From: Candidatus Zixiibacteriota bacterium
GTDB taxonomy: Bacteria; Zixibacteria; MSB-5A5; UM-FILTER-46-8
Assembly (NCBI GenBank): GCA_014730345.1
Contig: WJIJ01000019.1
Coordinates: 10,809 to 74,808 of the forward strand
Direction: 5' to 3'
Length of the DNA stretch: 64,000 nucleotides
Shown here: piece by piece, positions 19,773-34,841 of the stretch
Layout: every line of letters begins with the position of its first letter
Numbering within the stretch: the first letter of the stretch is position 1
Program-made: the position numbers and the translations under genes
Notes under the pieces: generated by a model
Databases searched by the model: none
The model's input: only the letters and a program-made list of their open reading frames with translations
What the model was told of the DNA's origin: nothing

Positions 19773-20861
19773 ATGAAGAATTGGAAACTACTTAAAACCA
19801 TCCCGGTTTTTATACTTGCCTTCTTATCAATACTTGTTTCTATCCAATTCGGGGGTTGCGGCAATCAAAGCATCAGTACTATTAAAAAGTACATAAAACA
19901 GGATAATTTCCAGGGAGCGAAATCTGAGTTAACCGAGCTTCTAAAGCGCGACCCGGTGAATAACGAAGCGCTGTTTCTCATGGGCAAGACCTGCGCCCAA
20001 TTGAAGGAATTCCGGTGTATGAATGAAAATTTCTCGCGGTCGTTGGAAATAGGCGACAGGTTCAGCAGGAAGATAGAGTACATAAAACTGGATAATTGGG
20101 CTTATTATTTTAATATGGCGATGGCATCGTATAGAATTCATGATTATGACAAGGCAATCACATTCGGTGAGTACGCGCTGGCTATAGCCGACACGGCGTA
20201 TGCTCATTTTTATTATCCTGATTTTGAAAATGTTACGCGAATGCAACTGGTTATGGGAGAATCATTCCGGGAGCTGGGGAGAATCGAGGATGCCAACAGG
20301 TATTACCGGTTGTGCCTGGGAAATAATCCGGACCAATTGCTCTGTTTAAACAGGCTGGCGGATTATTATTATTACAAAACGGCTTATGACAGCGCGTTGA
20401 TATTTTACCAGCGCATCGGCAGGATACGTCCTTATGATGAAAACGCTGCGGTACGGGCGGTTAAGTGTGTTGAAAATATTGATGGAGTGGAGGCCGCGAT
20501 CGAGATGGCTAACAGCAAGCTTTCCTCATCATCGAGAAGCGCGATATTAACGCGTTATATAGTTAATCTATACCTCCGGGAAGGAAATTTCAACGGTGCG
20601 GAATTCTGGCTGGAGAATGGTTATGTCGGAGAAAAGGATTATGATTATTACTTCATGCTGGGTCAGTGTAAATACAACCTTATGGATTTTGATAGCGCGA
20701 AGCAGTTGTTTGAAAAAGCTGTGGGTTTATCGCCCACTGGAAAAGAGGCGTGGGAATACCTCCAGATAATCTATGGCAATATTGGAGATATCGAAAAATA
20801 TGAATATGCACGGAGCCGGGTTAATTCTCTTCCGGGAAATGAGGATCAGTTAAAGGACTAA
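19773..20861 (+). CDS. TPR-repeat lipoprotein
   Basis: Start chosen at MKNWKLLKTIPVFILAFLSILVSIQFGGCG (lipobox-like FGGC). Multiple TPR-like helical repeats. Its stop overlaps the start of the next gene (TAATG). Confidence 0.6.
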   Translation: MKNWKLLKTIPVFILAFLSILVSIQFGGCGNQSISTIKKYIKQDNFQGAKSELTELLKRDPVNNEALFLMGKTCAQLKEFRCMNENFSRSLEIGDRFSRKIEYIKLDNWAYYFNMAMASYRIHDYDKAITFGEYALAIADTAYAHFYYPDFENVTRMQLVMGESFRELGRIEDANRYYRLCLGNNPDQLLCLNRLADYYYYKTAYDSALIFYQRIGRIRPYDENAAVRAVKCVENIDGVEAAIEMANSKLSSSSRSAILTRYIVNLYLREGNFNGAEFWLENGYVGEKDYDYYFMLGQCKYNLMDFDSAKQLFEKAVGLSPTGKEAWEYLQIIYGNIGDIEKYEYARSRVNSLPGNEDQLKD

Positions 20862-23800
20862 TGGACTATAACAAACAGACATCCCTTCTATTGAGGGCTT
20901 TGCGGATCCTGGTTTTCTCTATGCTTGTTATACCGCTCTGGGTTAACAACGCCGCGGCGTTGGATATTATCTCGTTTTACCCCGCTAATTTCTCGCTTGG
21001 TTTCGAGGCTACTGATTCCATAAGAGTGGTTTTCGATGCTATTATCGATGACGGGTCAGTTGATAGTACATCATTTTTGGTAAGGGGCAAAACGAGCGGA
21101 GTCTATCGGGGGACATACCGGGTATCGGCGGATACCGCGTGGTTTATTCCCCGCTGGCCATCGACTTTTATCTGGGGCGACATGATAACGGTTACAGTTA
21201 CCGAGGATGTCAGGACACCGATCAATGATTTCCTGGACCGGTCGGTGACATGGCAATTCTGGGTACGTCCTTCCGGCGGCGCAAGGGGCGCTACGGAGAG
21301 GTGGTTTGACCTTAATTCTTTCGACCCGGGCAAACTTATCGAGGTCGTCGATTTAGGTCCGGATGCCGACAGCATTCTTCATCAGCCGGACCTTGTCTCT
21401 ATCGGTCCCAAGCTTGGCGGCGACAGGGTTTCGTACTGGTTGAATGAATTTTCGAGCGACCCTGATATACCTTACCGTAATCCCCGGGCTGGTTTTTTTG
21501 ACCTCGATAACCAGCACAGCACGGATATAGAACCCGGCGATTTCAATAATGACGGCAGGATGGATCTTATTGTGGCCAATGAAGAAAGCGACTATTTCTA
21601 TTTTATTAAAAACACCGGCGGTTCTATCCCTCAGTTCGATTCTGTTTATTATGATATAGGAGGTATCCATTTCAACAGGTTTACCACTCTCGATTATGAC
21701 GGTGACGGATACCTTGATCTCGCGGGGATCAGCCCCGGGCAGAATATACTCGCGGTATTTCACAACGTCCCTTCAGGAAGCGAACGCGATTTCATAGTCG
21801 ACTGGGCTGACTCAACATCTGAATTCTGGCCCAGCGACTTGATCAGCGCTGATTTTAATAATGACCGGTTGATGGATATCGCGGTTTGCGCGAGAAATGA
21901 CGATGGGGAAAGCATTTATATTTACATTAACACCGGAGGTTTGCCGGGGAACCCATTCATTAGCGCCGTAATCCAGACCGGTCCCAATTCCATAACCGGG
22001 GTGGAAGCGGTAAACGCCGATGGCAATCAATCGCCTGACCTGCTTTTGTATTCCAGCCTTACCACTAACTGGCGGGCGGCTGTTATCAATAATCCCATGG
22101 GTCCTTCGACAAGCATAGATACCCTGCAGGGAATAGAACCGGGTATTCATGGTTACCCGGTAGATGCCAAAGCCGCGGATATTGAATTTAGCGGAGGCAT
22201 TAATCTCGAATACGCGGTGATTACCGAACAGAACTATCTTTTTCAGTATATCAGCGGATACGATAATCCCATCATAATAGGACCCGTCGTTGGGATGACC
22301 CTCGAAGAATCACCGCCCAAATTATCCCTCGCCGACCTCGACTACGACGGTGATATAGATATCCTCGTATCCTACGAAAGCGGCAATACAATTGTTGGCT
22401 GGCGCAATCCGGACACCCTCGAGAACCTGGTTGTGGTTCCCGATACAGTGAATTTCGGTATCGTGGAAATAAATACTGTTGATACATTGACCTATTCCAT
22501 AATAAACGCCGGCAATGAGATCGCCACCCTCGATGATATATACGGTGATGATCTTCCATTTAACGTGATTGATTTCCAGGCTGGAGATACGCTGGCACCC
22601 GGCGAGAGCAGTGATATAACGGCGGTATTCCAACCGCCAGCCTACGCTATATTCGAGGATACGGTTGTTCATGTTATAGGTTTAAGGTCTTTATACAGGT
22701 TCGAGGAAAATGTTATTTACTATGGAATTGGCGGCAAAAGGAGTTTTGGCCTTGATTCTGACACCATTGATTTCGGAGTTCAGTGCCGGGATACAGTCTT
22801 CCAGCAATTGCGGATAGAAAACTCATCTCCCGAAAACAATATGGAATTGGTTATCGATTCCTACCGGTGGAACCCGGCCGGTCAAGACCGTTTCCGGGTC
22901 AGGGGCGTGAGCTTGCCGGACACCATCCAGGCCGGGGAAGCTATAACATATTTTGTCGATTTCTTCGCCGACTCGATTTTTGCATCCTATTCGGCGTGGC
23001 TTGTTTTCGAACATAATGCCACCGGGACCGCGGGCATTGATTCGGTGTATATGACCGGCACCGTATTCTGCAATATTCCTCCCGAGGCCGACACGGTGCT
23101 TTTCACGATAAGCGAATGTTCCGATACCGCCTTGTACATTTCTTCTGAAAACTACCGCGATCCGGATAATCTCCCGCAGAACCTGAGTATTATTTCCGTG
23201 GTGGGATATCCATCCTGGGTAAGTTGGGACGGAGACACTACTTTGATTGCCAACCCCGGTCCCGAGGTGCAGGTTGATGAGGATACCGAATACTGGTTTC
23301 CGTACGTTATTACCGATGGGGCGGATACCGCTTCGTCCTGGATTGGTTTAACGCTTCTTGATGTTGAGAACGAACCTCCCGAAGTTGGTCCCCAGCTTTT
23401 CTCGATATTAGGGGATAGTACCCAGAATTTATCGCTGGAGATAAGCGACAACGATGGGGGCTGTTTAGGCTTTCCGGATATTGCTACAACATATACCAAC
23501 AGGTCGCTTCAACTACTTGGTGTGCTCCAAAATTATGATACATTGATTATTGTTCATCCTGATCAGGTACCGGAAGGCGATGTGCTGGTTTGCTCGCTTA
23601 TGGTTTCCGCTTTTGACGGTTTCGATTCATCCTATACAGTAATACCGGTTAATATTCTCCATAATCCTAATATCAAACCCGACCTGCGATTAATTGGACT
23701 GTCAGCGGCATCACAGCGCGTACCGGTGCGGGACTCGGTGGCGCTTACAGTTATTACCGATGTTATCCAAAACAGCTTCCCTGAAGAATATGTGATAGAA

Positions 23801-24283
23801 CTCCGCGACAATGACACCCTGTTCGCAGAGATAAGCATGCCTCCGCTGGGAAAGGACGAAGCTGACACTGTAACGGTTAGGCGATTGATTAGTTCGCTTG
23901 GCAACCATACTATAAACGCGCGGGCGGTTATTCCCCAGGGAGCGGCAGACAGGGATACCACTAACAATGAAAGGTCAATTATCGTGGTGGGAACCGAAGG
24001 GGACGTTATCGTCAAACCAAAGCCGTTTACTCCCAACGGCGATGGTTTTAATGACCGTTTGATTTTTGATTTAACCGCGTTGTACATAGATGAACCGCAG
24101 GTATTGATTTACTCGCTCGCGGGCGTAAAATTGAAGAAACTGGATGATGTATCCGCTGATAAGTTAATCTACTGGGATGGGAAGGATGATTCGGGACTGG
24201 ATCTCCCGCCCGGCGCGTATATGTTTATAGTAACGGACGGTTCTCGCAAACTGCATTCAGGTGTGATTTCCCTTGCAAGATAG
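20861..24283 (+). CDS. Large FG-GAP/VCBS-repeat adhesin-like protein with T9SS type-B (CHU_C, gliding-motility-associated) C-terminal domain
   Basis: 1140 aa. Signal peptide. Repeated FG-GAP-like Ca-binding loops (FNNDGRMDLIVAN, DYDGDGYLDLAG, DLDYDGDIDILVS, DFNNDRLMDIAV). The last about 90 aa contain PKPFTPNGDGFNDRLIF ... GAYMFIV, the hallmark of the type-B T9SS CTD. Confidence 0.72.
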   Translation: MDYNKQTSLLLRALRILVFSMLVIPLWVNNAAALDIISFYPANFSLGFEATDSIRVVFDAIIDDGSVDSTSFLVRGKTSGVYRGTYRVSADTAWFIPRWPSTFIWGDMITVTVTEDVRTPINDFLDRSVTWQFWVRPSGGARGATERWFDLNSFDPGKLIEVVDLGPDADSILHQPDLVSIGPKLGGDRVSYWLNEFSSDPDIPYRNPRAGFFDLDNQHSTDIEPGDFNNDGRMDLIVANEESDYFYFIKNTGGSIPQFDSVYYDIGGIHFNRFTTLDYDGDGYLDLAGISPGQNILAVFHNVPSGSERDFIVDWADSTSEFWPSDLISADFNNDRLMDIAVCARNDDGESIYIYINTGGLPGNPFISAVIQTGPNSITGVEAVNADGNQSPDLLLYSSLTTNWRAAVINNPMGPSTSIDTLQGIEPGIHGYPVDAKAADIEFSGGINLEYAVITEQNYLFQYISGYDNPIIIGPVVGMTLEESPPKLSLADLDYDGDIDILVSYESGNTIVGWRNPDTLENLVVVPDTVNFGIVEINTVDTLTYSIINAGNEIATLDDIYGDDLPFNVIDFQAGDTLAPGESSDITAVFQPPAYAIFEDTVVHVIGLRSLYRFEENVIYYGIGGKRSFGLDSDTIDFGVQCRDTVFQQLRIENSSPENNMELVIDSYRWNPAGQDRFRVRGVSLPDTIQAGEAITYFVDFFADSIFASYSAWLVFEHNATGTAGIDSVYMTGTVFCNIPPEADTVLFTISECSDTALYISSENYRDPDNLPQNLSIISVVGYPSWVSWDGDTTLIANPGPEVQVDEDTEYWFPYVITDGADTASSWIGLTLLDVENEPPEVGPQLFSILGDSTQNLSLEISDNDGGCLGFPDIATTYTNRSLQLLGVLQNYDTLIIVHPDQVPEGDVLVCSLMVSAFDGFDSSYTVIPVNILHNPNIKPDLRLIGLSAASQRVPVRDSVALTVITDVIQNSFPEEYVIELRDNDTLFAEISMPPLGKDEADTVTVRRLISSLGNHTINARAVIPQGAADRDTTNNERSIIVVGTEGDVIVKPKPFTPNGDGFNDRLIFDLTALYIDEPQVLIYSLAGVKLKKLDDVSADKLIYWDGKDDSGLDLPPGAYMFIVTDGSRKLHSGVISLAR

Positions 24284-24291: not shown

Positions 24292-26106
24292 ATGGTTTTT
24301 AAGATATTAAAATACGCAATGCTTATCTCTTCGTTCCTGCTGTTATTCACTCCGATCGTATATAGCCAGAATATGTTTGATGACAATCCGGCTGATATCG
24401 ATGGCGCCGTTGCCATCTACTCCAATCCGGCTCTTGGATACTTCGTGGAAAACAGGCTGGTACTGGGTATGGATGCCAGGTATCTGGGTCTTTTGGATAA
24501 CCAGCTTGGTTTAAGAAATCTCTATATTAACTATATCCCTTCATGGAGATTCCGGGGTTTCTCTTTTGGAGCGCAAACATTCAGCGCGGATATTTATAAT
24601 CAAACCACCTTTGGCGTTTCTTATTCCCGTAGTTTGCTGATAAAAAATCTGTCCGTTGGCGCTTCTGTTAACATATTCAACCGGGGTTTCGACAAGGATG
24701 ATTTCGATTTGATAGACAGCAATGACCCGGTTCTTGGTACCAGCCTGTCCAAAACCAATCTTGATATCACCATGGGAATAGCGTTCTTCCCGGTATCCAA
24801 TGTATGCGTTGGTTTTTCTGCTGAGCATATTAATCAACCTAATATAGCAATCGATGGCGACTATTCTCATCCTGCAATGATTTCGCTGGGCGCTAAAGCG
24901 TACTTCGGTAGATTGCATCCGTCTTTGTTTCTATCGAATCTCGAATGGTACGATAATTTAACCCTGTGGGACGCTGTAAAGCGCAACAAGTACCTGCTTA
25001 CATTCGGACTTGACTATGAATTATCAAACAGGTTTATAGTAGGTTCACAAATCAACCGCTCAGGTGCAGGCGTGGGAACAATGTTTAAGATTACTGATCT
25101 ACTCGGCGTGGATTACAGGTATGAATATCCGGTGACCGACATTAATAAATTCGCGTGGGGTTCACACCGGTTGAGCATGGTCTTCGAATTCGATTATGTA
25201 CCCGCTTACCGCCCGTCGGCCGGGATTGTTGAACCACCGGTACCCGTTTATTCTCCGCCCGAAATTGCGGTCAGCAACAGTTCCGACCTGTTTGCATTTT
25301 CGGATGTGGATAGCGTAACTATTCTGGAGCGGGAGATAAACCGCAGGCTCGATAAAGAAATCGACATGAACGAATTCGCGAAACTGAAACCTGCGGAATT
25401 GAACATAACCAGCGGAATCCTCCAGCTCGAAGACAGGTATTTCGCGGCCGATACCGTAGCGGTGAAAGATCCGCTTTCGGAGTTGAAGGGCGCTTATTCA
25501 ACATCTTACCGGGGCGCCTTGAATTCGATCGTTTACGGTATCAAGGAGAAAAGGACCTTGAAAGCCAGTCTTGTAGCGGGGCCCGATAACCTCCAACGGG
25601 CGAATTCCATGTATAACCTGATATCGGGATACGGCCAGCTATTCCCGGAGAACCTTGCAGTCGTAGTGCCGTACTACAGTATAACAGATACGACCGCGGG
25701 GGATATTAATATAATGGCTATGGAACCGGTCGAAAACAGGATTGATATTATTCCCGAGGAGATGAATTTTAAAATCCTGCGGCAGAACCATAGCGGCCAG
25801 GTTTCTGAATGGGCTTTGATGATAAATACTTACGAAGATATTACCGTGAAACTGTGGAATGGAGCCGGGAATCTCCCGGAAGAGATAAAATGGGATTTGC
25901 GTGATGATAGAGGGGAACTGATTAAAGAGGGACAGTATTATTATTATCTTGAATGGCTCGAACCGGACGGGAGTACGCGTCGGTCTTTCAGACAGCAACT
26001 TACAGTCTTGCGTATCCAGAAGAGATTGTTTATAGATGTAACTACGCAACCTTCGTATGACAGATTAAAAGAGGCAGATAAGATAGATTTAATTTTGGGT
26101 CGGTAA
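24292..26106 (+). CDS. PorP/SprF-family T9SS outer-membrane protein homologue with a long C-terminal extension
   Basis: 604 aa. Signal peptide then the IYSNPALGY motif typical of the PorP/SprF N-terminus. Predicted beta-strand-rich first half of about 300 aa. Located 8 nt downstream of a type-B CTD cargo gene, the canonical arrangement. The C-terminal 300 aa have no recognisable family. Confidence 0.5.
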   Translation: MVFKILKYAMLISSFLLLFTPIVYSQNMFDDNPADIDGAVAIYSNPALGYFVENRLVLGMDARYLGLLDNQLGLRNLYINYIPSWRFRGFSFGAQTFSADIYNQTTFGVSYSRSLLIKNLSVGASVNIFNRGFDKDDFDLIDSNDPVLGTSLSKTNLDITMGIAFFPVSNVCVGFSAEHINQPNIAIDGDYSHPAMISLGAKAYFGRLHPSLFLSNLEWYDNLTLWDAVKRNKYLLTFGLDYELSNRFIVGSQINRSGAGVGTMFKITDLLGVDYRYEYPVTDINKFAWGSHRLSMVFEFDYVPAYRPSAGIVEPPVPVYSPPEIAVSNSSDLFAFSDVDSVTILEREINRRLDKEIDMNEFAKLKPAELNITSGILQLEDRYFAADTVAVKDPLSELKGAYSTSYRGALNSIVYGIKEKRTLKASLVAGPDNLQRANSMYNLISGYGQLFPENLAVVVPYYSITDTTAGDINIMAMEPVENRIDIIPEEMNFKILRQNHSGQVSEWALMINTYEDITVKLWNGAGNLPEEIKWDLRDDRGELIKEGQYYYYLEWLEPDGSTRRSFRQQLTVLRIQKRLFIDVTTQPSYDRLKEADKIDLILGR

Positions 26107-26163
26107 CATCGATCCGATAAATAAAATAAGGGAAATACCGGATTACGGATAAGGAGCAGGTGA

Positions 26164-26940
26164 ATGAAAATCGGGATACTAACTATATTGATGACAGCGC
26201 TTTTATTTATGCCATTTTGCGTTTTGTTCGCGCAAACCGGTGATCAGACCGCGGATGAAAGCGCGTCAGCCATTGAGAATACAACTGTGCAGGATACTGT
26301 AGCGCAGGACTACAGCATCGGCGGAATCCTGGCAAGGGCCGGCAAGACAAGATATTTTATTTATGGAGTTCTTGCCCTGGGAGTATTTTTCATAATTTTT
26401 CAGTTTATATTGCTGACCCTCGACAGGAAAAGGTCGGCAGGATTGCGCAAATCGGATCTGGAAAAGATGCCTGTAGAGTCTATACGGAAACGCCTCGAGA
26501 CCGAACCGGATTCATCGGTCAACAGCGCGCTCCTGATGCTTTACCGGGTTTATTCCTCGTCCCGGGATATCAGTGCGTTGAATGAGGAAATAAATTCGTT
26601 TCTCGGGGGCATGAAATCGAGGTTTTCAACATTTACGAATTGGATGAATTTCCTGTCCGATGCCGCTGGAGCTCTGGGTTTATTGGGTACCGTTATTGGT
26701 ATGTTTACCACATTTTTCGGCGCGGATACCGGGTTTGATAACCGCAAAATACTTGACGGTATGGGTATCGCCCTTATCACCACCTTACTCGGCATTATCG
26801 TAAGTTTGATACTAAACCTGCTTACAGTACTGGTAACCAACTACCATAACCGGAATCTCGAATACGTTATGGAAAAATCGGATGAATTCCGCATTATCGC
26901 CGCCCGCAGCCAGAGAAGGGATGAAGCTCCCCGGGCGTAG
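26164..26940 (+). CDS. exbB: MotA/TolQ/ExbB-family proton channel
   Basis: 258 aa. Signal peptide plus three TM helices. Diagnostic LGLLGTVIGMFTTF and GIALITTLLGIIVSLILN motifs. Strong RBS AAGGAG. Confidence 0.8.
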   Translation: MKIGILTILMTALLFMPFCVLFAQTGDQTADESASAIENTTVQDTVAQDYSIGGILARAGKTRYFIYGVLALGVFFIIFQFILLTLDRKRSAGLRKSDLEKMPVESIRKRLETEPDSSVNSALLMLYRVYSSSRDISALNEEINSFLGGMKSRFSTFTNWMNFLSDAAGALGLLGTVIGMFTTFFGADTGFDNRKILDGMGIALITTLLGIIVSLILNLLTVLVTNYHNRNLEYVMEKSDEFRIIAARSQRRDEAPRA

Positions 26941-27339: not shown

Positions 27340-27731
27340 AACGCAAAGGGATAATAATCCGATTAATTGACGTTGTTTTGATAATCCTCCTCGGATTTTT
27401 AGCCATTTCCGATTTCCAGGCTAAAACGCCCATCGACCTTCCCGATTTAACTCCGGATGAGGAGATTGTCAAGGAACCGGAACTCGAGGAAATTCCGATA
27501 GCGGAAGTGGTAATTGACAACGAAAACAAGTTTATTTTTTCCGTCAACCAGGCTGACACAATTATCCTCGACAACAAGGAAGACCTTGAATATACCATAT
27601 ATGATTTTTATTCGCGGGATACATCTATGGTAGTGCTAATCCTGCCCCGGGACAGCTCCGAGGTGCAGGCCACCGTGGATGTAATCGATATATGCGAAAA
27701 ATATGAAATTCCCAGAAATCTGACATTTTAA
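27336..27731 (+). CDS. exbD: ExbD/TolR-family protein (second copy)
   Basis: 131 aa. N-terminal RLIDVVLIILLGFL TM. Directly follows the first ExbD-like gene. Confidence 0.6.
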   Translation: MKRKGIIIRLIDVVLIILLGFLAISDFQAKTPIDLPDLTPDEEIVKEPELEEIPIAEVVIDNENKFIFSVNQADTIILDNKEDLEYTIYDFYSRDTSMVVLILPRDSSEVQATVDVIDICEKYEIPRNLTF

Positions 27732-28673
27732 ATGTACTACGCAAAAAACGAAAATAAGATAAAGCTAATATCGGCGATAATCACGGTGATTATACTGCCG
27801 CTTGTTTACTTCGCCGTAAAAAACCAGACCCCATTCGTGTTTTTACGGCAGATGGCCGAAGAATCCTCCAGGTGGATAACAATTATGAGGCCCGAACCGC
27901 CGCCTGAACCGCCTGATGTGCGCGATGAGCTTTTACGCAGGCTGGAGAGTTTAAAGCAGAGAACCCAGCAAGCGCTCCTTGAGCGAATGGAACGATTGAC
28001 AGAGGAGTTTCAGAAAAATCCGGAACGTATCCAGATTGATAATCGCCCGCAATTCGCACTTCAGCAGGACAGGCTTCGGGACGCAATCGACCGCGTAGGT
28101 TCCGGAAAGCGCGCCAACAGCAAGATACGATCCGGGGGTATAGATTTCACTCCCGGGGGAAATTATAATTTCGGAAACAGCAGTCAGGGCGGCAGTTTTT
28201 CCGGCAAGCGGGAGGGTGTTGCCCGCAAAGATGTCAATGCCGTTACCCCGGGCGATATGAACTGGGCGGAATTCGGTGATGTTAATCTCGACGATGATAT
28301 CTCCAGCGACTATGATAGATTATTGCAGTGGGTTAAAAACCATCCGAAATCTCTTCCAAATGTTTTCATTAACTTGATGGAAGGCGAACGGACTGATCCC
28401 CAGACGATAATTAGGCATAAACACGCCGATATATATCTGTTAATTAATGACCGGGCCAAGCTGGTTAATATCGCTGTTGTAAACAGCGACAGCGTGGCTG
28501 TTATGATCGACCATGGCCTGGCATTGGAAATACGCAAACTTGACCTTGGCGAGGTTTTCCGGAGGAACGAGGACTCGATCATCGGTCTCGATGTCAATCC
28601 CGCTCAAACCCGCAGGAGTTTATACGAGCCGTGGTATACGGCGTTTCGATCATGGTGGGAAGGAATAAGATGA
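27732..28673 (+). CDS. TonB-like protein: N-terminal TM anchor, proline-rich spacer (RPEPPPEPPD), non-canonical C-terminal domain
   Basis: 313 aa. TM at residues about 12-32 and a Pro/Glu-rich segment as in TonB. The C-terminal 120 aa do not resemble the TonB_C fold by eye. Positioned after exbB-exbD-exbD. Confidence 0.45.
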   Translation: MYYAKNENKIKLISAIITVIILPLVYFAVKNQTPFVFLRQMAEESSRWITIMRPEPPPEPPDVRDELLRRLESLKQRTQQALLERMERLTEEFQKNPERIQIDNRPQFALQQDRLRDAIDRVGSGKRANSKIRSGGIDFTPGGNYNFGNSSQGGSFSGKREGVARKDVNAVTPGDMNWAEFGDVNLDDDISSDYDRLLQWVKNHPKSLPNVFINLMEGERTDPQTIIRHKHADIYLLINDRAKLVNIAVVNSDSVAVMIDHGLALEIRKLDLGEVFRRNEDSIIGLDVNPAQTRRSLYEPWYTAFRSWWEGIR

Positions 28674-30256
28674 AAAGGAAGCGTATCGAATTCTATATAT
28701 TGTTGGCAGGTCTAATCATCATGGTTGCCTGTTCAGGGTCTCCAAAAGAGGATACATTAAAACCGGTCGGCGCGCCTGTTACGATTGACACCGTTACTGT
28801 TTATGTCCCGATTCCCCCCGGTATCGATACTACAACAGCGATAGAAGCATACAAACTTGCCGATAAAAGCTTCGTTTCATTAAGCGAGGACTCACTCGCG
28901 GATGCGCTTTATGATGAAGGACATCAGTTGAAAATTGAGGTCGACTCGATCTGGAGCGAATATGAAAAAGCGCTTAACGAGAAAGATTCAGTTGACAATG
29001 ATACAACTGGAATGGGAATGACTATGCGCGCGCTTGAACTTCATGACCAGTATGACAGGTATTATCCCTCGCAAGAAGCATCTCCGGAAGCTATTGCCAA
29101 TATACCAGAGGCCAGATTTCGGCGGCTGGTAACCAATTACGAACGCGCGCGGGATATCATGGAACAGGTTATCCTTATAAATCCATATAATGACCTGTAT
29201 CGAGGATTCCTGGCCACCCTGTATTCCCGGCTTGCCCAGCTCCACCGGTCCCGCGATGACCTTGAAAAATCTATAGAGTTGTATGAAAACCTTATACGTC
29301 TCAACAAGGGATACTTCCGCAACTATTACAACGTTGCCCAGGTTTATGAAGACGCCGGCGATTATCGAAAGGCCTATGAAAACTACAGGAAGGCTGAGGA
29401 GATACTGTTGGAGACCTGGCATTTTGAAACCACGGACACAAACGCGTTCAGGGTCAAGGCATGCCGTCTCGATGATTTTCCGCTTATTGAATATGCCACT
29501 TACATTTTCAGCCAGGCGCTTATGCAGGAGAGAATGTGGCGGGTCGAGAACGCGATTGTCGATTACCGCAGGCTCCGTGAAGTTTCCCGTATGGCCGGTG
29601 ACCGGGAGTATGAACAGTACGCAATAGATGGTATCGCTGAACTTCAATGGGATTACGGCGATATAGCCGCCAGGCAAAAATGGCTCGAATTCTGGGATGT
29701 ACGGCAGAATGATGAAGACCGGGCGGCTTTGCTTTTAAGGGATTTACTGCCGCGTTTGGATGATCCCGATGTTAGAATAATGGCCCAATTCGAGATGGGA
29801 GTTCTTGAATGGACTTCTCTAAACCAGCGTGAGCAGGCTATAACAAGGATAGGGATACTTGTCGATGAGATTGAGCTCGATGAAAATGGCGCTGTTGTCG
29901 ACACGTCATATTACCGGATTATAAACAGCTATGGGTCGATGTGTTTCACCCTCGGAAAGGAATACGAAGATACGGATAAAGTAAAATCTCTCCAATACTA
30001 CCTTGAATCGACAAAATACGAATGGGACCATCGCGGTTCAGGTTTGATTAACTGCATGATTAAACTTCAAAACAGACCGGAGGAAGTTGTTAGACTCGGG
30101 CAGATGGCGGTTGATTATACCGGACAGTTGAACGAGCAGGAATTGAAATTGCTTTTCCAGTTAATGATTGATTCGTACAAAAAAATTGGCGATTTCAGGA
30201 GCGCGCGTATGTATTATTCGAGATGGCGGGACTTGCAAAACATGAGTGGAGGTTAA
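28670..30256 (+). CDS. TPR-repeat lipoprotein
   Basis: Start MKRKRIEFYILLAGLIIMVACSGS (lipobox VAC) overlaps the TonB-like stop (ATGA). Long array of TPR-like helices. Confidence 0.6.
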   Translation: MKRKRIEFYILLAGLIIMVACSGSPKEDTLKPVGAPVTIDTVTVYVPIPPGIDTTTAIEAYKLADKSFVSLSEDSLADALYDEGHQLKIEVDSIWSEYEKALNEKDSVDNDTTGMGMTMRALELHDQYDRYYPSQEASPEAIANIPEARFRRLVTNYERARDIMEQVILINPYNDLYRGFLATLYSRLAQLHRSRDDLEKSIELYENLIRLNKGYFRNYYNVAQVYEDAGDYRKAYENYRKAEEILLETWHFETTDTNAFRVKACRLDDFPLIEYATYIFSQALMQERMWRVENAIVDYRRLREVSRMAGDREYEQYAIDGIAELQWDYGDIAARQKWLEFWDVRQNDEDRAALLLRDLLPRLDDPDVRIMAQFEMGVLEWTSLNQREQAITRIGILVDEIELDENGAVVDTSYYRIINSYGSMCFTLGKEYEDTDKVKSLQYYLESTKYEWDHRGSGLINCMIKLQNRPEEVVRLGQMAVDYTGQLNEQELKLLFQLMIDSYKKIGDFRSARMYYSRWRDLQNMSGG

Positions 30257-30268: not shown

Positions 30269-30994
30269 ATGCCGGGTTATAATAAAGTAATGATTGCCAT
30301 ACTGGGAATAATCATGTTCCCGATGGCTATATTTGCCCAACCGTCGGTTGTTCCCCATAAAGTTGATAAAGCGGTGATAACTGATAAGGTACTTATACGG
30401 GAAATTGCCGCCGAGATGTATATCACCGTTGATATTGAAACCGTGGAGAAGATGGAGATTATTGATATCACCGGGGATGGTTTCGGTAAAAATGATATCG
30501 CTAAAGTTTTTCCTTCAGAGCGATTCTTCCAGCTAAGCGAAATATCCGATGAACTCGAAGAGGAGATGGGCAGTTGGAAAAGGGAGGCCGCCGGTGGTGT
30601 TGTATTTGAGAACCTGCCCGCCGATGAATTCCGTGAGATTTACAACGGGCGGAAACTACCCCAATATCTTTTGCTGGCCAATATCGGCTATGCCCTGGAA
30701 CAGATTTACGGCGACAGTTTGCCCATTGAGCTCTACTACAGCAAGGACACAACAGGAATCATATTCCATTACTGGGGTTACGTGGAAGACTCGCTGGTTT
30801 ATCGTCCCGGGAAAAGGGGAGATGTAGCCAGGACTACGGCTTATGATTTGATGTATGTGTTGAAGAATGATACCACGGTTGTGGTGGATACGACGATGTA
30901 CGATATAATGTTCATTTATAAAACACTGACGGACACGGTCTACCTGCCCGGTCCTGGAAAATTACCACAGGGGAGAGGGCCAATAAATGAATAA
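30269..30994 (+). CDS. Hypothetical secreted protein
   Basis: 241 aa. N-terminal signal peptide. No recognisable domain. Tightly packed in the array and overlaps the next gene by 8 nt. Confidence 0.35.
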   Translation: MPGYNKVMIAILGIIMFPMAIFAQPSVVPHKVDKAVITDKVLIREIAAEMYITVDIETVEKMEIIDITGDGFGKNDIAKVFPSERFFQLSEISDELEEEMGSWKREAAGGVVFENLPADEFREIYNGRKLPQYLLLANIGYALEQIYGDSLPIELYYSKDTTGIIFHYWGYVEDSLVYRPGKRGDVARTTAYDLMYVLKNDTTVVVDTTMYDIMFIYKTLTDTVYLPGPGKLPQGRGPINE

Positions 30995-32033
30995 GAGCTT
31001 TTCATTTAATAGCCCTTTGGCTCTGTTATTGGCAGGTATTTGTTTTATCTTCTACGCCGCGTCTATAAAGATCGCTGTTGCGGGAGAGGTGCATGTTCAA
31101 ATCGCTGAAATCAGTGGAAATGAGTTGATGGTAACCTGGAGCAAAGAGCAGTACAGCGGCGGGAAGGTGTCCATTTTAGTATCTGATATAGGATCCGGTC
31201 AATCCTTTAAATATAATGAAGGCGGTGATAAAGGATTTTTTATAGTTAATAACCTTAAATACGGTTTTGATTATAAGGTGACTGTCGAAATCGATATTAA
31301 TGATGATAACTTCGGCAAAACATTCAATTTAATTAAATCAAAACCATTTGAGGAAACTGTGTTTGTGGCTCAGATGAAATTATTGGTTTATAGATATGAA
31401 GTTACCAACAAGCAATATAAAGAATTTTGCGACTCAACCGGCAGAAACTATCCCCCGCCGGTTCCCTTTACCGGATTGGGGGACTATTTCACTACCCAGG
31501 GCGAATATCCGGTGGTCAAAGTTAGCTGGTACGATGCTGTAGATTTCTGCAACTGGAGAAGTAAACAACTGGGACTGACAGAATGCTATGATGATGATTA
31601 TCAATTGATACCCGGTTCTGATGGATTCCGCCTGCCGCGTATGGACGAATGGATGGATTTAGCATTTCCGGACATGGGAACACCTGGCAGAGTTTCGATC
31701 TATTCGGGAGCTTTTAATAAGGGTAGCGTTAAATCCACTTCAAGGTTCACCGAAAAAGTCGGTACCTCATCGGAGCCGAACGCGTACGGTATTTATGATA
31801 TATTCGGAAATGTGTGGGAATGGTGCCAGGATGATTATATTCCCAAAATTGAGCAGGATTTCGATGTGTCCGCCGCGGAAATGAAAAAGAATCTAAAACC
31901 GGTTTGTGGAGGAAGCTGGGCCGACAATCCCGCCAGTCTCGATTTTAAAATTAGAACCTTTAATTATCCCGATAACAGGTATTCCACGGTCGGTTTCCGT
32001 CCGGTGAGGAACACTGGTTTCGAAGTTAACTAA
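30987..32033 (+). CDS. FGE-sulfatase (SUMF1/formylglycine-generating-enzyme-like) domain protein
   Basis: 348 aa. Signal peptide and N-terminal beta-rich region of about 120 aa. FGE-sulfatase blocks EVTNKQYKEF, YPVVKVSWYDAVDFCNWRS, GFRLPRMDEWMD, GNVWEWCQDDY, GGSW...STVGFRPV. Same family as GldJ/GldK/PorK. Confidence 0.75.
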   Translation: MNKSFSFNSPLALLLAGICFIFYAASIKIAVAGEVHVQIAEISGNELMVTWSKEQYSGGKVSILVSDIGSGQSFKYNEGGDKGFFIVNNLKYGFDYKVTVEIDINDDNFGKTFNLIKSKPFEETVFVAQMKLLVYRYEVTNKQYKEFCDSTGRNYPPPVPFTGLGDYFTTQGEYPVVKVSWYDAVDFCNWRSKQLGLTECYDDDYQLIPGSDGFRLPRMDEWMDLAFPDMGTPGRVSIYSGAFNKGSVKSTSRFTEKVGTSSEPNAYGIYDIFGNVWEWCQDDYIPKIEQDFDVSAAEMKKNLKPVCGGSWADNPASLDFKIRTFNYPDNRYSTVGFRPVRNTGFEVN

Positions 32034-32052
32034 AAAGGGAGTTGAGTGCAGC

Positions 32053-32901
32053 TTGAATAAAATATTCTACGTTATTCTAATCTTAGTGTTAAGCCCTTTA
32101 ACAACTTTTGGACAGCCGCCGGTAATGCCAACCGAAGTTCCAGACGGTATGGTACTCGTGCCCGGGGGACCATTTTACTTCCTTAATACTCCCGACGGAT
32201 ACGGTTTAACGAAATATCCCGGCAATCCGGCGCGTTTGGACAGCTTTTACATAGATATTACCGAGGTGACCAATTCCCAGTATGCTGAATTTTTAAACTC
32301 CGGCAATGAAGAGTTTTACCATGATGATATGAATATCAGCAGGGATTCAATGGGCATTTTCAAATCTGATTTTGGAATGGAAGAGCACCCGGTGGTATCG
32401 GTCAGCTACAATGGAGCGAACGCCTTTGCCCGATGGGCGGGCAAAAGGCTTCCCACCGAGATGGAATGGGAAAAGGCGGCAAGAGGAAGCGCCGGCGGGG
32501 AAGATGAAAACGCTATTGGTTTCGGATATATGTTCCCCTGGGGAAATTCAGAACCGGATTCTTTGATAGCCAATTTTATCAATGGAGCGCCCTACGGATA
32601 CCCGGAGACGACCCCGGTCGGTTACTACGATGGCGAAATACATGATGGTTTTCCAACAGAGGATAATTCCTCTATATATGGCGCTTATGACATGGCCGGC
32701 AATGTATGGGAATGGACCAGCGGAAAACTGATACCATTCGCCGGGGAAACTGTCCCGGACGACGTTATTGAATTGAGGGTAGTACGCGGGGGAAGCTTCA
32801 AGGATGCCGCCATGTCTTTAAGAACCACGACTCGCTCGGGTTACAGTGATTCCACCCACATGCATAATATCGGTTTCCGGTGCGTGAAAGATTTAAGATA
32901 A
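32053..32901 (+). CDS. FGE-sulfatase domain protein (second paralogue; TTG start)
   Basis: 282 aa. Signal peptide. Complete domain: MVLVPGGPF, EVTNSQYAEF, HPVVSVSYNGANAFARWAGKRLPTEMEWEKAARG, FPWGN, GNVWEWTSG, VVRGGSF...RTTTRSGY...NIGFRCV. Confidence 0.85.
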   Translation: MNKIFYVILILVLSPLTTFGQPPVMPTEVPDGMVLVPGGPFYFLNTPDGYGLTKYPGNPARLDSFYIDITEVTNSQYAEFLNSGNEEFYHDDMNISRDSMGIFKSDFGMEEHPVVSVSYNGANAFARWAGKRLPTEMEWEKAARGSAGGEDENAIGFGYMFPWGNSEPDSLIANFINGAPYGYPETTPVGYYDGEIHDGFPTEDNSSIYGAYDMAGNVWEWTSGKLIPFAGETVPDDVIELRVVRGGSFKDAAMSLRTTTRSGYSDSTHMHNIGFRCVKDLR

Positions 32902-32909
32902 TCCTGCTT

Positions 32910-34841
32910 ATGTTTAGCAAAAGTCCTGCCGGGCATGTTATATCCCTGTTTATATTTCTCTCATCGTTGGTTCTAATAGGTTGCGGCGGTAAACCAAAAG
33001 ATAATTATACCGCTGGGGCTGACAAAATTCGTAAGCATATTACACTGACCGGGAAACAGATCAGCGACCATTCCGTCCGGCTTGATTGGGAGTTTAAAAG
33101 GGATTTTGATTCATCATCTATCTCAATTGAGATGAGGACCGGGGATGAGCTGTATTATAAAACTATTGCCGAATCCCTGAATATGTCCATATCGACATAT
33201 ACTTATGATGAAATAAAGCCCGGAGAGATATATTATTTCAGGATCAGGGAGAGTTCCAGAACGGATTTCGGGAGTATGAGCGATCCATGGATTCTGCAGT
33301 CGCTATTCTCTGCTCCAATATTGAAAGAGCCGGAAGTTTTAACTGACCATGAGGTGCGACTTGGATGGGAAGTAAATAATCCGATGGCTATTTCGGTCGA
33401 GATCGAAAGGCAGGATATTGGACTTTTTAAGCGGGTGGCAACAGTGAACGCTTCCGAGAGTAGCTGGATGGATACAACCCTCGCGTCAAATCGTGATTAT
33501 AAATATCGCGTAAGGTGTAAAGGCGAGAGGTACTATTCCTCTTACTCTGATATCGTCAACGTAAACACCCAACTGCCTCCGCCATCCGACCTGTCAATTG
33601 AAATTATTGACGGAGATAAAGTAGTGTTAAGCTGGATAGATAAAAGCGGTTGGGCTGACACCTTTTATGTTTATCGGAGGAAGATAAACGAAGACTTTCG
33701 ACATATCCAAACCCTTCCCAGTAATATGAACCGCTTTTCAGACTTCGGTCTCGAATATAACACTTCTTATCTTTACAAGCTAAAAGCCAGGTCAGCCGGA
33801 AATTTCTCGGGTTTCTCCGAGCCCGAGGACATAACCATTAAAATTAAGAAACTGGAAAAACCTGAAGCGAAACTTGTAGGCAAAAATGCTCTCGAGCTTA
33901 AGTGGAAAAAGCCAGAGTCCTTTGTAAAGGGTTACAGGATAATCAGGAAAGAAAAGGGAATAGTAGAGGATAAAATCATTGCGCAATTACCCCCGGACAG
34001 CATTTCATTTGTTGATACAACTATCGCCGCCGGGACCCGATATATCTATATCGTCAATCCGCTTTATTCTGGCGATTTGCCGGATTTATCCAACCGGGTG
34101 GAGTATTACATCCCGGATATTTCCTCGGAAATGGTGTTTATTGGCTCCGGTTCGGTTAACCGCCGTATCGATAGTCTCGGCAGTTGGTACGGCGATAAGT
34201 ATAAAAAGGTTGAAGTAAACGCGTTTTACATATCCCGGCACGAGATAACCAACCGCGAATACCAATTGTTTATCGATGAAACCGGGCATAAACCCCCTCC
34301 ATCAGCTATGTTCGAGAACATGGACAATTATTTTTACGATTATCCCGATTATCCTGTCGTAATGGTGAACTGGTATGACGCCGTGGAATATTGCAATTGG
34401 CTGAGTAAACGCATGGGTTTAGAACCGGCTTATGGAAAAAACTACAAATTTATTCAAAGCGCCAATGGATATCGTCTACCCCGCGAGAACCAATTTATTA
34501 AAATATATCAGGATATGTATGGGTTAAACGGCGTCAGCGAGGAAAACGGAAATTTTTTTGGAAACAGGGATGGTTATCCGACAACTTCGCCGGCGGGAAA
34601 ATTAACCGGCGGCGGGAAAGCGTATCCGGTCTGGGATATTGTCGGCAATGTTGCTGAATGGCTCAACGACAAAGTTATGGGAAGGGGACAGGAAATGCTG
34701 GAACTCCGCAAGATAATTGGAGGCGACTGGTCGACTTCGCAGGATGACTTTGACATCGAATTCACACTGACCCTTCTGCCATCGAACAGGTTCAATCATG
34801 TCGGGTTCCGGGTGATTCTGCCCGGTGATTATGATAAATAG
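32910..34841 (+). CDS. Lipoprotein with FN3-like repeats fused to a C-terminal FGE-sulfatase domain (third paralogue)
   Basis: Start at MFSKSPAG...LVLIGCGG (lipobox LIGC). Three to four about 90-aa repeats with a VRLxWE pattern (FN3-like). C-terminal EITNREYQLF, YPVVMVNWYDAVEYCNWLSKRMG, GYRLPRENQF, GNVAEWLND, IIGGDWS...HVGFRVI. Confidence 0.75.
   Translation: MFSKSPAGHVISLFIFLSSLVLIGCGGKPKDNYTAGADKIRKHITLTGKQISDHSVRLDWEFKRDFDSSSISIEMRTGDELYYKTIAESLNMSISTYTYDEIKPGEIYYFRIRESSRTDFGSMSDPWILQSLFSAPILKEPEVLTDHEVRLGWEVNNPMAISVEIERQDIGLFKRVATVNASESSWMDTTLASNRDYKYRVRCKGERYYSSYSDIVNVNTQLPPPSDLSIEIIDGDKVVLSWIDKSGWADTFYVYRRKINEDFRHIQTLPSNMNRFSDFGLEYNTSYLYKLKARSAGNFSGFSEPEDITIKIKKLEKPEAKLVGKNALELKWKKPESFVKGYRIIRKEKGIVEDKIIAQLPPDSISFVDTTIAAGTRYIYIVNPLYSGDLPDLSNRVEYYIPDISSEMVFIGSGSVNRRIDSLGSWYGDKYKKVEVNAFYISRHEITNREYQLFIDETGHKPPPSAMFENMDNYFYDYPDYPVVMVNWYDAVEYCNWLSKRMGLEPAYGKNYKFIQSANGYRLPRENQFIKIYQDMYGLNGVSEENGNFFGNRDGYPTTSPAGKLTGGGKAYPVWDIVGNVAEWLNDKVMGRGQEMLELRKIIGGDWSTSQDDFDIEFTLTLLPSNRFNHVGFRVILPGDYDK

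Follow-up and report, generated by a model that had tools for sequence, protein, structure and literature searches.

In the Agl-Glt machinery of Myxococcus xanthus, by which a surface adhesin is moved, a single TolQ-like subunit (AglR) is combined with a pair of TolR-like ones (AglQ and AglS); TonB-like proteins, TPR proteins and beta-barrels of the outer membrane also belong to it. Two ExbD paralogues are also encoded by the Ton operons of Bacteroidota. TonB and TolA bind their motors via a His/SHLS motif of the TM helix, and genes lying beside tolQ/tolR-like ones have been proposed to encode force transducers other than TonB, with such systems also reported in Rhodothermota (PMC12204202). 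The gliding/T9SS chain of Bacteroidota comprises the SprB-SprF carrier pair, a GldJ/GldK/GldN track and the GldLM motor (PMC12635249). In Flavobacterium, the PorP-type carrier SprF passes motor force to a type-B adhesin via its periplasmic C-terminal tail, in which a Cys-X-Cys motif forms a disulfide with the invariant Cys343 of GldK, linking carrier to track (PMC12635249).

Here we describe an unbroken, co-directional array of 12 genes on the forward strand of a Zixibacteria MAG, located at positions 19773-34841 of the 64,000-nucleotide stretch of DNA analysed (the window). Genes 1-9 of this array form a conserved cassette and may represent one system that spans the envelope in FCB-group phyla outside the Bacteroidia, with a cargo module (genes 1-3) and a motor module (genes 4-9). 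No published description of the cassette was found in the literature, and the nine-gene core has apparently not been described before.

Organisation of the array

The array is compact throughout. Genes 1 and 2 overlap at TAATG (20861), genes 5 and 6 at ATGA (27336), genes 7 and 8 at ATGA (28670) and genes 9 and 10 by 8 nt (30987-30994), with genes 6 and 7 joined through adjacent codons (27731/27732). The remaining junctions are spacers of 8 nt (genes 2/3), 57 nt (genes 3/4, 26107-26163, the widest gap within the array), 18 nt (genes 4/5), 12 nt (genes 8/9), 19 nt (genes 10/11) and 8 nt (genes 11/12, with the ATG at 32910 as the start of gene 12). The flanks are wider, at 405 nt on the upstream side and 151 nt on the downstream side. 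A first-pass annotation had described a co-directional array with overlapping or short junctions, and every overlap it listed is present; its count of fifteen genes is corrected to 12, the gaps of at most 57 nt being too small for extra genes. The domain content it had proposed was likewise recovered, namely TPR, type-B CTD, PorP_SprF, MotA_ExbB, two ExbD, three FGE-sulfatase and, in gene 12, fn3 domains. Consensus scans for promoters (36 versus 31.4 expected) and terminators (12 versus 17 expected) are at chance level, and thus silent on whether the genes are transcribed as one unit; evidence against a chance arrangement comes from synteny in other loci rather than from the window itself.

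Conservation of a nine-gene core

Comparison of approximately 90 related loci delimits the cassette to genes 1-9, which occur in Zixibacteria, KSB1, Calditrichota, Rhodothermota/Balneolales, Zhuqueibacterota and some Gemmatimonadota, with the gene order repeated in dozens of loci at a protein identity of just 20-40%. In the gene 4-seeded set, gene 3 adjoins gene 4 in 42 of the 52 loci with at least 6.5 kb of upstream sequence, while among the 51 loci with at least 5.5 kb downstream, genes 5, 6, 7 and 9 are present in 43 and all of genes 5-9 in 39. A rearranged subtype carries an unchanged gene set in the order gene 3, gene 4, gene 2-like genes and genes 5-9. Furthermore, seven MAGs contain two cassettes each, with both modules retained by the copy in most of these loci; the exceptions, L042 and L068, show motor-module genes only, and two further loci from such MAGs (L059 and L079) are cut by contig ends.

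This pattern bears on one alternative, in which the array places two functionally independent neighbours side by side, co-located or co-regulated and no more: a T9SS type-B cargo/carrier pair of the ordinary kind (genes 1-3) and a Ton/Tol-like energy system (genes 4-9) serving another outer-membrane process such as uptake via an unlinked receptor or envelope maintenance. Genes 1-3 were undetected upstream of genes 4-9 in most Gemmatimonadota loci and in L042, L068 and L072, so the motor module can occur with no cargo module next to it, and could have a partner other than the carrier. The cargo-motor interaction is moreover putative, and TPR proteins are found beside tolQ/tolR-like genes in other systems (PMC12204202). 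Against this, the adjacency of genes 3 and 4 is kept at such low identity over at least five phyla, outlives the insertion of gene 2-like genes between genes 4 and 5, and is kept through duplication in most two-cassette genomes; it also appears in the reciprocal gene 3-seeded search, where motor-module genes lie directly 3' of gene 3 in 5/5 metagenome loci whose sequence continues past that gene. The cassette and its immediate surroundings contain no gene for a TonB-dependent receptor, TolB or a Pal-like protein. We regard independent neighbours as unlikely, and give roughly even odds to the reading developed below, of a dedicated PMF-driven, envelope-spanning module that would act on a T9SS type-B cargo-carrier pair.

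The cargo module

Gene 1 (19773-20861, + strand, ATG at 19773) encodes a TPR protein of 362 aa (TPR_2 56 bits, with matches to other TPR families) and is the first gene of the cassette; an orthologue precedes gene 2 in at least 20 loci. Its N-terminal signal sequence ends in FGGC, so the product is probably a lipoprotein.

Gene 2 (20861-24283, + strand) encodes a secreted surface protein of 1140 aa with a signal peptide, a Big_5 domain, FG-GAP/VCBS repeats, Ig-like domains (choice-of-anchor D/HYDIN and CARDB) and a C-terminal T9SS type-B CTD. Against CHU_C (PF13585, GA 27) the whole protein scores 26.5 bits and the C-terminal 169 aa alone 30.0 bits, with 27.4 bits for TIGR04131 (cut-off 35). 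Among orthologues, 22/22 gene 2 C-termini match CHU_C (best E 2.9e-11) and share the conserved motif PNPFTPNGDGxND...WDGRD..G...PGVYLY. Its adjacency to a cognate PorP/SprF-like gene 3 is kept in related loci.

Gene 3 (24292-26106, + strand) encodes a probable PorP/SprF-family outer-membrane beta-barrel (residues ~25-300) followed by a C-terminal extension of ~300 aa, which is presumably periplasmic. The match to PorP_SprF (PF11751) reaches 61.6 bits (GA 22.3) and covers profile positions 76-273 only, while that to TIGR03519 (65.7 bits) falls under the 90.55 cut-off. The final ~90 residues resemble a T9SS CTD/FlgD-Ig domain, although the matches are weak (FlgD_ig in the extension of 2/8 orthologues; E 0.08 for the extension against the PorU CTD 6za2). 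The SprF-type Cys-X-Cys tail is absent from gene 3, whose one Cys lies in the barrel (NVCVG), and no conserved Cys column was found in a 15-member alignment.

The earlier assignment of genes 2 and 3 as a T9SS type-B cargo and PorP/SprF-like pair is thus upheld by the CHU_C and PorP_SprF matches. Four proteins with a type-A CTD are encoded within the window; with several T9SS type-A cargoes encoded by the organism, the presence of a T9SS is very probable, and gene 2 is a candidate for an exported, carrier-anchored cargo of that system.

The motor module

Gene 4 (26164-26940, + strand) encodes a MotA/ExbB/TolQ-family proton-channel subunit of 258 aa (MotA_ExbB 49.8 bits), which carries a signal peptide and three TM helices. 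Its clade is a divergent one, with family-profile scores of 27.9, 27.6 and 20.6 bits against solved structures of MotA, TolQ and ExbB, respectively, and the protein falls far under all NCBIfam equivalog cut-offs (best exbB2, 26.9 bits versus 135). The motifs G-L-L-G-T-V and T-T are invariant, as are T176, T206 and T207. Genes 5 (26959-27339, + strand, 126 aa, ExbD 35.6 bits) and 6 (27336-27731, + strand, 131 aa, ExbD 42.6 bits) encode two ExbD/TolR-like stator subunits, in which the TM Asp is kept in 100% of orthologues examined, namely D7 of the R-L-V-D motif in gene 5 (80 orthologues) and D12 in gene 6 (76 orthologues). A stator of one ExbB and two ExbD subunits, as proposed at first pass, is accordingly borne out with intact proton-path residues. 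Among PADLOC models, gene 4 matches ZorA alone, at 18-21 bits and on the MotA core, and the other genes have no match; Zorya and other known anti-phage systems were set aside, the matches not extending beyond this generic core.

Gene 7 (27732-28673, + strand) encodes a bitopic inner-membrane protein of 313 aa, consisting of a TM helix, a helical/disordered linker and a C-terminal domain of ~130 aa. The AF2 model places the helix at residues 6-31 and the linker at 36-166, with the conserved C-terminal domain (pLDDT >90) forming a six-stranded sheet with helices. This domain is not of the TonB fold: gene 7 has no Pfam or NCBIfam match at all, and a TonB_C domain is absent by every method used. 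The protein had initially been called TonB-like, a label that does not hold beyond topology, with only a short PEPPPEPP stretch in the window copy, while the linkers of orthologues are P/E/K-rich. Its TM helix in the window lacks His, and the consensus shows T..L...Y in place of SHLS, so that coupling to the stator is deduced from synteny and topology. Gene 7 is a candidate force transducer, TonB-like in topology and no TonB homologue.

Gene 8 (28670-30256, + strand) encodes a TPR lipoprotein of 528 aa (lipobox MVAC; TPR_2, TPR_8 and TPR_12), conserved in 39/51 loci with enough downstream DNA and only weakly matching the TPR region of PorW/SprE (20.6 bits versus a cut-off of 250). With gene 1, it makes up the two TPR proteins of the array, in line with the TPR lipoproteins of the first reading. 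Gene 9 (30269-30994, + strand), the last of the conserved core, encodes a secreted, periplasmic protein of 241 aa with a signal peptide and of no recognised family.

Two further readings of the motor module need to be weighed here. The first, a housekeeping or nutrient-uptake TonB system, draws on the family-level MotA_ExbB and ExbD matches, but is met by the lack of TonB_C in gene 7, by ExbB, TolQ and ExbD equivalog scores that are all far under cut-off, and by the array itself, which contains no receptor gene and no receptor or Plug domain. The first-pass annotation had argued against such a system and had found no TonB-dependent receptor; both points stand, with gene 4 equidistant from MotA, TolQ and ExbB and two cassette copies in several MAGs, and we consider this reading highly improbable. 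In the second, the genes would serve envelope integrity or outer-membrane tethering in a Tol-Pal-like manner, in FCB phyla without canonical Tol-Pal, and the stator would equate to TolQR, gene 7 to a TolA analogue, gene 8 to a CpoB-like TPR lipoprotein and the gene 3 extension to a Pal-like anchor. The stator-anchor-TPR order does resemble tolQRA...cpoB, a weak RA..V..YL motif occurs within the gene 3 extension, and CpoB outside Proteobacteria is commonly a TPR lipoprotein (PMC12204202). An OmpA-like fold for the extension found no support, however, a comparison by hhalign between the gene 3 profile and the OmpA C-domain giving a probability of 0.7%, and the array has neither a TolB-like propeller nor any TolB or OmpA Pfam match. 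The cassettes are also multi-copy and patchy rather than single and universal, and each carries a large dedicated secreted surface protein, all of which makes a Tol-Pal-like role improbable.

FGE-fold accessory proteins

The array of the window continues with three FGE-sulfatase-fold proteins. Gene 10 (30987-32033, + strand, 348 aa, FGE-sulfatase 105 bits) has its best PDB matches in T. denticola TvpA (2y3c) and pFGE. Gene 11 (32053-32901, + strand, 282 aa, TTG start, FGE-sulfatase 164.6 bits) has a signal peptide and best matches pFGE/SUMF2 (1y4j), while gene 12 (32910-34841, + strand) encodes a lipoprotein (lipobox LIGC) with fn3/Ig-like repeats (fn3 63.3 bits) and a C-terminal FGE-fold domain (FGE-sulfatase 88.7 bits), with an orthologue in the Zixibacteria locus L002. 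Catalysis was judged by the cysteine pair C-x4-C after GGS[YW]. Genes 10 (GGSWADNPASL) and 12 (GGDWSTSQDDF) have no Cys pair, and gene 11, aligned to FGE 2q17/6muj, has K-D-A-A-M-S in place of the catalytic C-H-D-S-Y-C; since the pair is missing in 3/3, the proteins are non-catalytic. That the FGE genes encode real sulfatase-maturating enzymes, as their FGE-sulfatase Pfam matches might suggest, is as remote a prospect as the housekeeping TonB system, and no sulfatase gene occurs among the scanned window ORFs.

FGE-fold genes directly follow gene 9 in the window and in L002 (Zixibacteria), in the lineage of L001, L003, L004, L033 and L065, and in L052, and are missing from most cassettes. Genes 10-12 are hence a lineage-specific accessory outside the core. 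This is relevant to a Bacteroidota-style gliding/T9SS track, in which the FGE-fold proteins would form a GldJ/GldK/PorK-like track or ring on which the PorP-like carrier rides, with ExbB/ExbD replacing GldL/GldM. The parts list of the window parallels SprB, SprF, GldJ/K and a motor, the FGE proteins lack the catalytic pair, and their position 3' of gene 9 in several lineages indicates that the association recurred. Nevertheless, no GldK/PorK or GldJ model (TIGR03525, TIGR03524, TIGR03530) is matched above cut-off by genes 10-12, which score 86, 101 and 51.5 bits with the GldK model (cut-off 350) and 35, 43 and 26 bits with the GldJ model (cut-off 458). The initial view of these proteins as non-catalytic and GldJ/GldK/PorK-like therefore survives in its first half, whereas scores of 26-101 bits versus 350-458 and a place outside the conserved system speak against the second. 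We consider a track of this kind improbable.

A possible mechanism

In the proposed scheme, the cargo module would consist of a TPR lipoprotein, the surface protein (type-B CTD, FG-GAP propeller and Ig-like domains) and a dedicated PorP/SprF-type carrier with an unusual periplasmic extension of 300 residues. The motor module would comprise the MotA/ExbB/TolQ-family subunit, both ExbD/TolR-like subunits, the gene 7 connector, the second TPR lipoprotein and gene 9. For the stator proteins, a proton-driven 5:2 assembly of all three is presumed, in which proton flow would move or rotate the ExbD-like dimer together with the anchor helix of gene 7. The gene 7 linker would cross the periplasm, allowing the new-fold C-terminal domain to engage an assembly at the outer membrane, where the carrier's periplasmic extension is the most plausible contact point, with the TPR lipoproteins and gene 9 acting as a scaffold for this contact. 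As the functional output, we infer that the PMF might be spent on moving or pulling the carrier-held surface protein, on switching its conformation or on extracting it from the T9SS translocon. In Zixibacteria, three non-catalytic FGE-fold proteins may have been added as a periplasmic or outer-membrane-proximal accessory layer. The stoichiometric co-assembly and the motility-like role advanced at first pass are conjectural, and the cassette-bearing taxa are, to our knowledge, not known to glide, a point that counts against the scheme.

More tentatively still, the cassette could define an unrecognised class of PMF trans-envelope machine, in which a MotA/ExbB-type stator with a non-TonB, new-fold transducer drives a PorP-type carrier and a surface propeller/Ig protein, a reading we consider less likely than not. 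If true, Zixibacteria, KSB1, Calditrichota, Rhodothermota and Gemmatimonadota would possess a second, GldLM-independent “energy chain” for surface-protein movement, with adhesin translocation, gliding-like motility or force-dependent adhesion as potential outputs.

Comparison with known systems

Both the cassette and the Bacteroidota gliding/T9SS chain (Liu et al. 2025, PMC12635249) pair a type-B-CTD surface protein with an adjacent PorP/SprF-like carrier of its own. A periplasmic C-terminal part of that carrier and a PMF-driven inner-membrane motor, both predicted for the cassette, are also shared, as are, in this window, non-catalytic FGE-fold proteins, one of them a lipoprotein. The differences lie in the motor, which is of the MotA/ExbB/TolQ and ExbD families instead of GldL/GldM; in the connector, a bitopic protein of its own whose C-terminal fold is new; and in the carrier extension, ~300 aa long and cysteine-free in contrast to the short twin-Cys tail. 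The FGE-fold proteins, in addition, do not count as GldK/GldJ orthologues and most cassettes lack them, and all components are housed in one cassette, often with two per genome.

With ExbB-ExbD-TonB and TolQ-TolR-TolA, the cassette has in common a MotA/ExbB/TolQ-family subunit, ExbD/TolR-like subunits with a conserved TM Asp, and a third bitopic protein whose N-terminal anchor is joined by an extended linker to a globular C-terminal domain. In the cassette, by contrast, the gene 4 family lies at equal distance from the solved MotA, TolQ and ExbB, the C-terminal domain of gene 7 is not of the TonB/TolA fold and its TM helix is without His/SHLS; the partners are a T9SS carrier and cargo instead of a TonB-dependent receptor, TolB or Pal. 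The vWA transducer systems (PMC12204202) differ as well, since the gene 7 C-terminal domain is not vWA, the SHLS/His motif is absent and the cassette is linked to a T9SS cargo/carrier pair. As for Agl-Glt, which was compared by description, no homology was found outside the stator superfamily; on that description it is set apart by the lack of TonB_C domains and of identified Glt-type proteins in the cassette, whose outer-membrane part probably belongs to the T9SS PorP family.

Gene organisation of the array

The array comprises twelve consecutive plus-strand genes (g1 to g12), located from 19773 to 34841 by ORF listing and translation of the window, with a maximal internal intergenic gap of 57 nt. 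The first-pass annotation had counted fifteen genes, a number that proved too high because twelve ORFs were found and the gaps leave no space for others. The overlaps that it reported at 20861, 27336, 28670 and 30987, and the adjacent codons at 27731/27732, were all recovered, and domain search bore out its parts list of TPR proteins, type-B cargo, a PorP-like protein, a MotA_ExbB protein, two ExbD proteins and three FGE-fold proteins. On its 5' side the array is separated by a 405-nt gap from a gene for an S8 peptidase bearing a T9SS type-A CTD, and on its 3' side by a 151-nt gap from an alpha-glucan phosphorylase gene. Promoter and terminator consensus scans of the window returned counts at chance level, uninformative either way. 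By eye, the sole obvious promoter candidate is a TTGACA hexamer with an A/T-rich stretch after it (19439–19466) within the 405-nt gap 5' of g1, lying under the scan threshold.

Signalling genes flank the array, with a PAS histidine kinase and a GGDEF-EAL protein (13353–15113) encoded within 10491–15113 and a response-regulator-PAS protein at 37627–38616 on the minus strand, opposite to the array; these could act as its regulators, possibly via c-di-GMP. T9SS sorting domains of type A occur in four large secreted proteins, encoded at 15486–19367, 43403–45727, 45900–48884 and 60993–63260. This set of two S8 peptidases, a MAM/NIDO protein and a sortilin/BNR protein, together with the GGDEF-EAL protein, fits a non-Bacteroidia FCB-group organism having a T9SS. 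Type-A CTD genes also lie just 5' of the cassette in two of the compared loci (L005 and L006). The cluster at 54479–60228, containing TetR, LolA_like and FtsX/MacB-type permease genes and three more co-directional ORFs (57141–60228), resembles an ABC system of the lipoprotein-release or efflux type, unrelated to the cassette.

Conservation and variants of the cassette

The family of g4, the MotA/ExbB/TolQ-type member of the array, is uncommon, with approximately 22 clusters at E below 1e-20 among 5.8 billion proteins and at least 310 loci confirmed in GTDB data (one genome per species); an exact look-up of the window g4 sequence found no record. The contexts of six g4 homologues contained the same neighbour genes as the window. 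HMMs of g1–g12 were built from g4-homologue loci and run on six-frame ORFs of 87 loci. The order g1-g2-g3-g4-g5-g6-g7-g8-g9 was seen in Zixibacteria, KSB1, Calditrichota/Caldithrix, Rhodothermales/Balneolales and Zhuqueibacterota, as well as in one Gemmatimonadota MAG, with the Balneolales carriers including a strain in culture, Rhodohalobacter sp. 8-1 (locus L040, NZ_JBBVMF010000021.1), and the closest relative of the window locus being another Zixibacteria locus (L002). The window g7 itself is 100% identical to an NCBI protein from a "candidate division Zixibacteria" MAG. At a 50-bit HMM threshold, g3 adjoins g4 in 42 of the 52 loci having at least 6.5 kb upstream, while g5, g6, g7 and g9 are present in 43, and the complete g5–g9 set in 39, of the 51 loci having at least 5.5 kb downstream. 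Furthermore, a reciprocal scan of metagenome contigs seeded with a narrow g3 alignment gave seven loci, and motor-module genes stood directly 3' of g3 in all five that had downstream DNA. Outside Zixibacteria the proteins share 20–42% pairwise identity with those of the window, therefore the synteny does not reflect recent common ancestry of a genomic region. We conclude that the conserved unit is g1–g9, composed of a cargo module (g1–g3) and a motor module (g4–g9).

Several variants depart from this order. A second subtype (L078, L081–L087) carries g3-g4, then g2-like genes with a 3–5 kb insert, then g5–g9, and two paralogous cassettes occur in seven MAGs (L034/L085, L022/L042, L026/L068, L032/L070, L023/L087, L039/L063 and L059/L079), those of L034 and L085 lying side by side on contig CAZCJL010000008.1. 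Linkage of the two modules has thus been kept through deep divergence, rearrangement and duplication, supporting their functional coupling. The main caution on this coupling is the cargo-less variant, as most Gemmatimonadota loci contain g4–g9 alone, with a g9 approximately 350 aa longer. A reading of g1–g3 and g4–g9 as independent neighbours could draw on this variant, and against the retained linkage it keeps a low, though appreciable, probability.

In seven Gemmatimonadota/Longimicrobiales loci (L037, L046, L049, L052, L053, L057 and L061), g4–g9 is present and g1–g3 was undetected upstream; the g9 of this type ends in a C-terminal fusion of approximately 350 aa with repeated D-x-D-x-S-G segments and weak EF-hand matches. 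Three g8-like TPR genes stand in tandem in L079 and L085. A g7-like protein of approximately 600 aa directly follows g3 at L073:7858-9729 and L094:8789-10585, and in L094 it is succeeded by g8 and g9, with no g4–g6 in the available DNA of the locus. A divergent lineage on ENA long-read contigs of up to 3.7 Mb (L001/L003/L004) has the cassette immediately 3' of two selenocysteine genes, selA and selB, and of a DjlA-like gene, and its last cassette gene encodes a single FGE-fold protein of approximately 710 aa, whose start overlaps g9.

The motor module

The g4 protein (26164–26940) matches MotA_ExbB in domain search. It has three TM helices besides a signal peptide, and its GLLGTV and TT motifs are invariant. 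Its family profile is equidistant from solved structures of MotA (27.9 bits), TolQ (27.6) and ExbB (20.6), and g4 scores far under all NCBIfam equivalog cut-offs; together these set it apart as a separate clade, distinct from the housekeeping Ton or Tol stator. A Tol-Pal-like tethering system is an unlikely explanation of the array. The proposal that the array is not a nutrient TonB system holds up, g4 being placed outside the Ton clade and a TonB-dependent receptor being absent among the window genes in domain search. An anti-phage, Zorya-like reading was also considered and rejected, PADLOC giving generic ZorA-core matches only.

Approximately 65 of 88 g4 orthologues are 400–660 aa long, with a C-terminal extension that, beyond TM3, carries one or two Ig repeats of the Big_1/invasin-like kind (for example L010:9758-11332, L040:9848-11443 and L046:9602-11326); the window g4, of 258 aa, is without it. 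By ExbB topology this extension would be cytoplasmic, an unusual site for such domains.

Both g5 (26959–27339) and g6 (27336–27731) match ExbD. A TM aspartate is essential in ExbD, TolR and MotB, and that of both ExbD-like proteins is kept in 100% of 76–80 orthologues. The module also includes g8 (28670–30256), a TPR protein with a clear lipobox, and the periplasmic g9 (30269–30994), which had no domain match in the Pfam/NCBIfam-type search of the window genes.

The connector g7 (27732–28673) has, across orthologues, an N-terminal TM helix with the consensus T..L...Y and without His, a variable linker that is P/E/K-rich in most lineages, and a C-terminal domain of approximately 130 aa that is conserved (LxxWMKxHPxxLP ... 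LTSxVxF ... RIxLVEG..T.LID.GF ... FYQIFLSWWE). Since the low-complexity linker swamps word-indexed search, which gave one and three proteins, relatives were sought by exhaustive representative search, yielding 40 representatives. No Pfam family or PDB sequence was matched by a 25-member profile or by individual members, and the sole match to TonB was in the linker (E 2.6). The earlier description of g7 as TonB-like is thus retained for its TM-linker-domain topology only and dropped as a statement of homology.

The cargo module

The first gene, g1 (19773–20861), encodes a TPR protein with a probable lipobox by domain search. The g2 protein (20861–24283) contains modules of the Big_5, FG-GAP/VCBS, Ig-like and CARDB types, with CHU_C (type-B CTD) at its C-terminus. 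Among g2 orthologues, the last 170 residues have in common the motif PNPFTPNGDGxND...WDGRD..G...PGVYLY...LAR; CHU_C was found in all 22 orthologue C-termini tested, with CARDB just upstream in 18, and the window C-terminal fragment alone scored 30.0 against a gathering threshold of 27.

The carrier g3 (24292–26106) matches PorP_SprF (61.6 bits) across its first approximately 300 residues, and approximately 300 more follow as a C-terminal extension conserved throughout the g3 family. Within this extension FlgD_ig was weakly matched in two of eight orthologues, and the last approximately 90 residues gave a weak match to the PorU CTD (E 0.08). An OmpA/Pal-like peptidoglycan-binding domain was unsupported there, with one weak Pfam match (E 0.11) and an hhalign probability of 0.7%. 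As the SprF C-tail is periplasmic (PMC12635249), the g3 extension would by analogy be periplasmic too.

The FGE-fold proteins

All three proteins, g10 (30987–32033), g11 (32053–32901) and g12 (32910–34841), have the FGE-sulfatase fold, with an additional fn3 in g12. The best matches of g10 are T. denticola TvpA, which is non-enzymatic, and pFGE, and the Cys pair is absent from g10; g11 aligns best with pFGE/SUMF2 and bacterial FGEs, with the catalytic CHDSYC replaced by K-DA-AMS; and g12 has no Cys pair in its sequence, its alignment stopping short of the catalytic region. Their scores on the equivalog models for GldK/PorK and GldJ are 26–101 bits, with cut-offs of 350–458. By their missing Cys pairs and low scores, they are non-catalytic FGE-fold proteins and neither GldK/PorK/GldJ orthologues nor sulfatase maturases. 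A housekeeping Ton system or true FGE function, as the ExbD matches or the fold might suggest, is very improbable beside these substitutions and the position of g4.

FGE-fold genes after g9 occur only in the window, L002, L001/L003/L004, L033, L065 and L052, and we conclude that they are recurrent, lineage-specific accessories outside the conserved unit. In L045 an FGE-fold gene lies just past g9 on the opposite strand. A Bacteroidota-like FGE track machine has little probability in view of the model scores and accessory distribution; the weight first placed on the GldJ/GldK analogy was excessive. Overall, the first-pass reading stands in its parts list and non-nutrient verdict, and falls in its gene count, TonB homology and FGE emphasis.

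Proposed function and comparison with known systems

On the best-supported reading, the cassette encodes a dedicated, proton-driven module that spans the envelope and is attached to a cargo-carrier pair of the T9SS type-B kind, with a presumed 5:2-type stator and a periplasmic transducer joined to T9SS carrier and cargo. In Flavobacterium, the PorP-type carrier is the element passing motor force to a type-B adhesin (PMC12635249), making the large periplasmic extension of g3 the most plausible receiver of force that g7 would pass from the motor. We infer the contact between the modules, their stoichiometry and the output, which may be to move, tension or release the g2 surface protein or to extract it from the translocon.

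The cassette is undescribed in the literature found by full-text search, and its core proteins are without a curated family name; g7, g9 and the g3 extension belong to no recognised family, lacking Pfam or PDB matches apart from the weak ones given above for the g3 extension, and offer material for structural work. The g4–g9 order provides a practical genomic marker for annotating genes mostly named "hypothetical protein". If the reading is true, Ton/Tol force transduction would be joined with the T9SS/gliding field, a link made timely by the 2025 result that PorP-type carriers receive force in Bacteroidota (PMC12635249). The hypothesis is testable, since among the carriers of the cassette, otherwise from poorly studied FCB phyla, at least one Balneolales strain is in culture.

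Type-B substrates with dedicated PorP/SprF-type carriers have been described (PMC9143113; PMC12635249), an arrangement matched by the CHU_C of g2 and the adjacent PorP/SprF-family g3. SprF forms a disulfide to GldK, whereas the g3 extension has zero cysteines, thus this mechanism cannot apply. Stators of the MotA/ExbB/TolQ superfamily are the proton-driven motors behind flagella, TonB-dependent import, Tol-Pal, gliding of Myxococcus and Zorya defence, while the T9SS and Bacteroidota gliding run on the separate GldLM motor. The ExbB/ExbD-type stator of the cassette, if wired to a T9SS carrier and cargo via a non-TonB connector, would represent a new output of this motor family.
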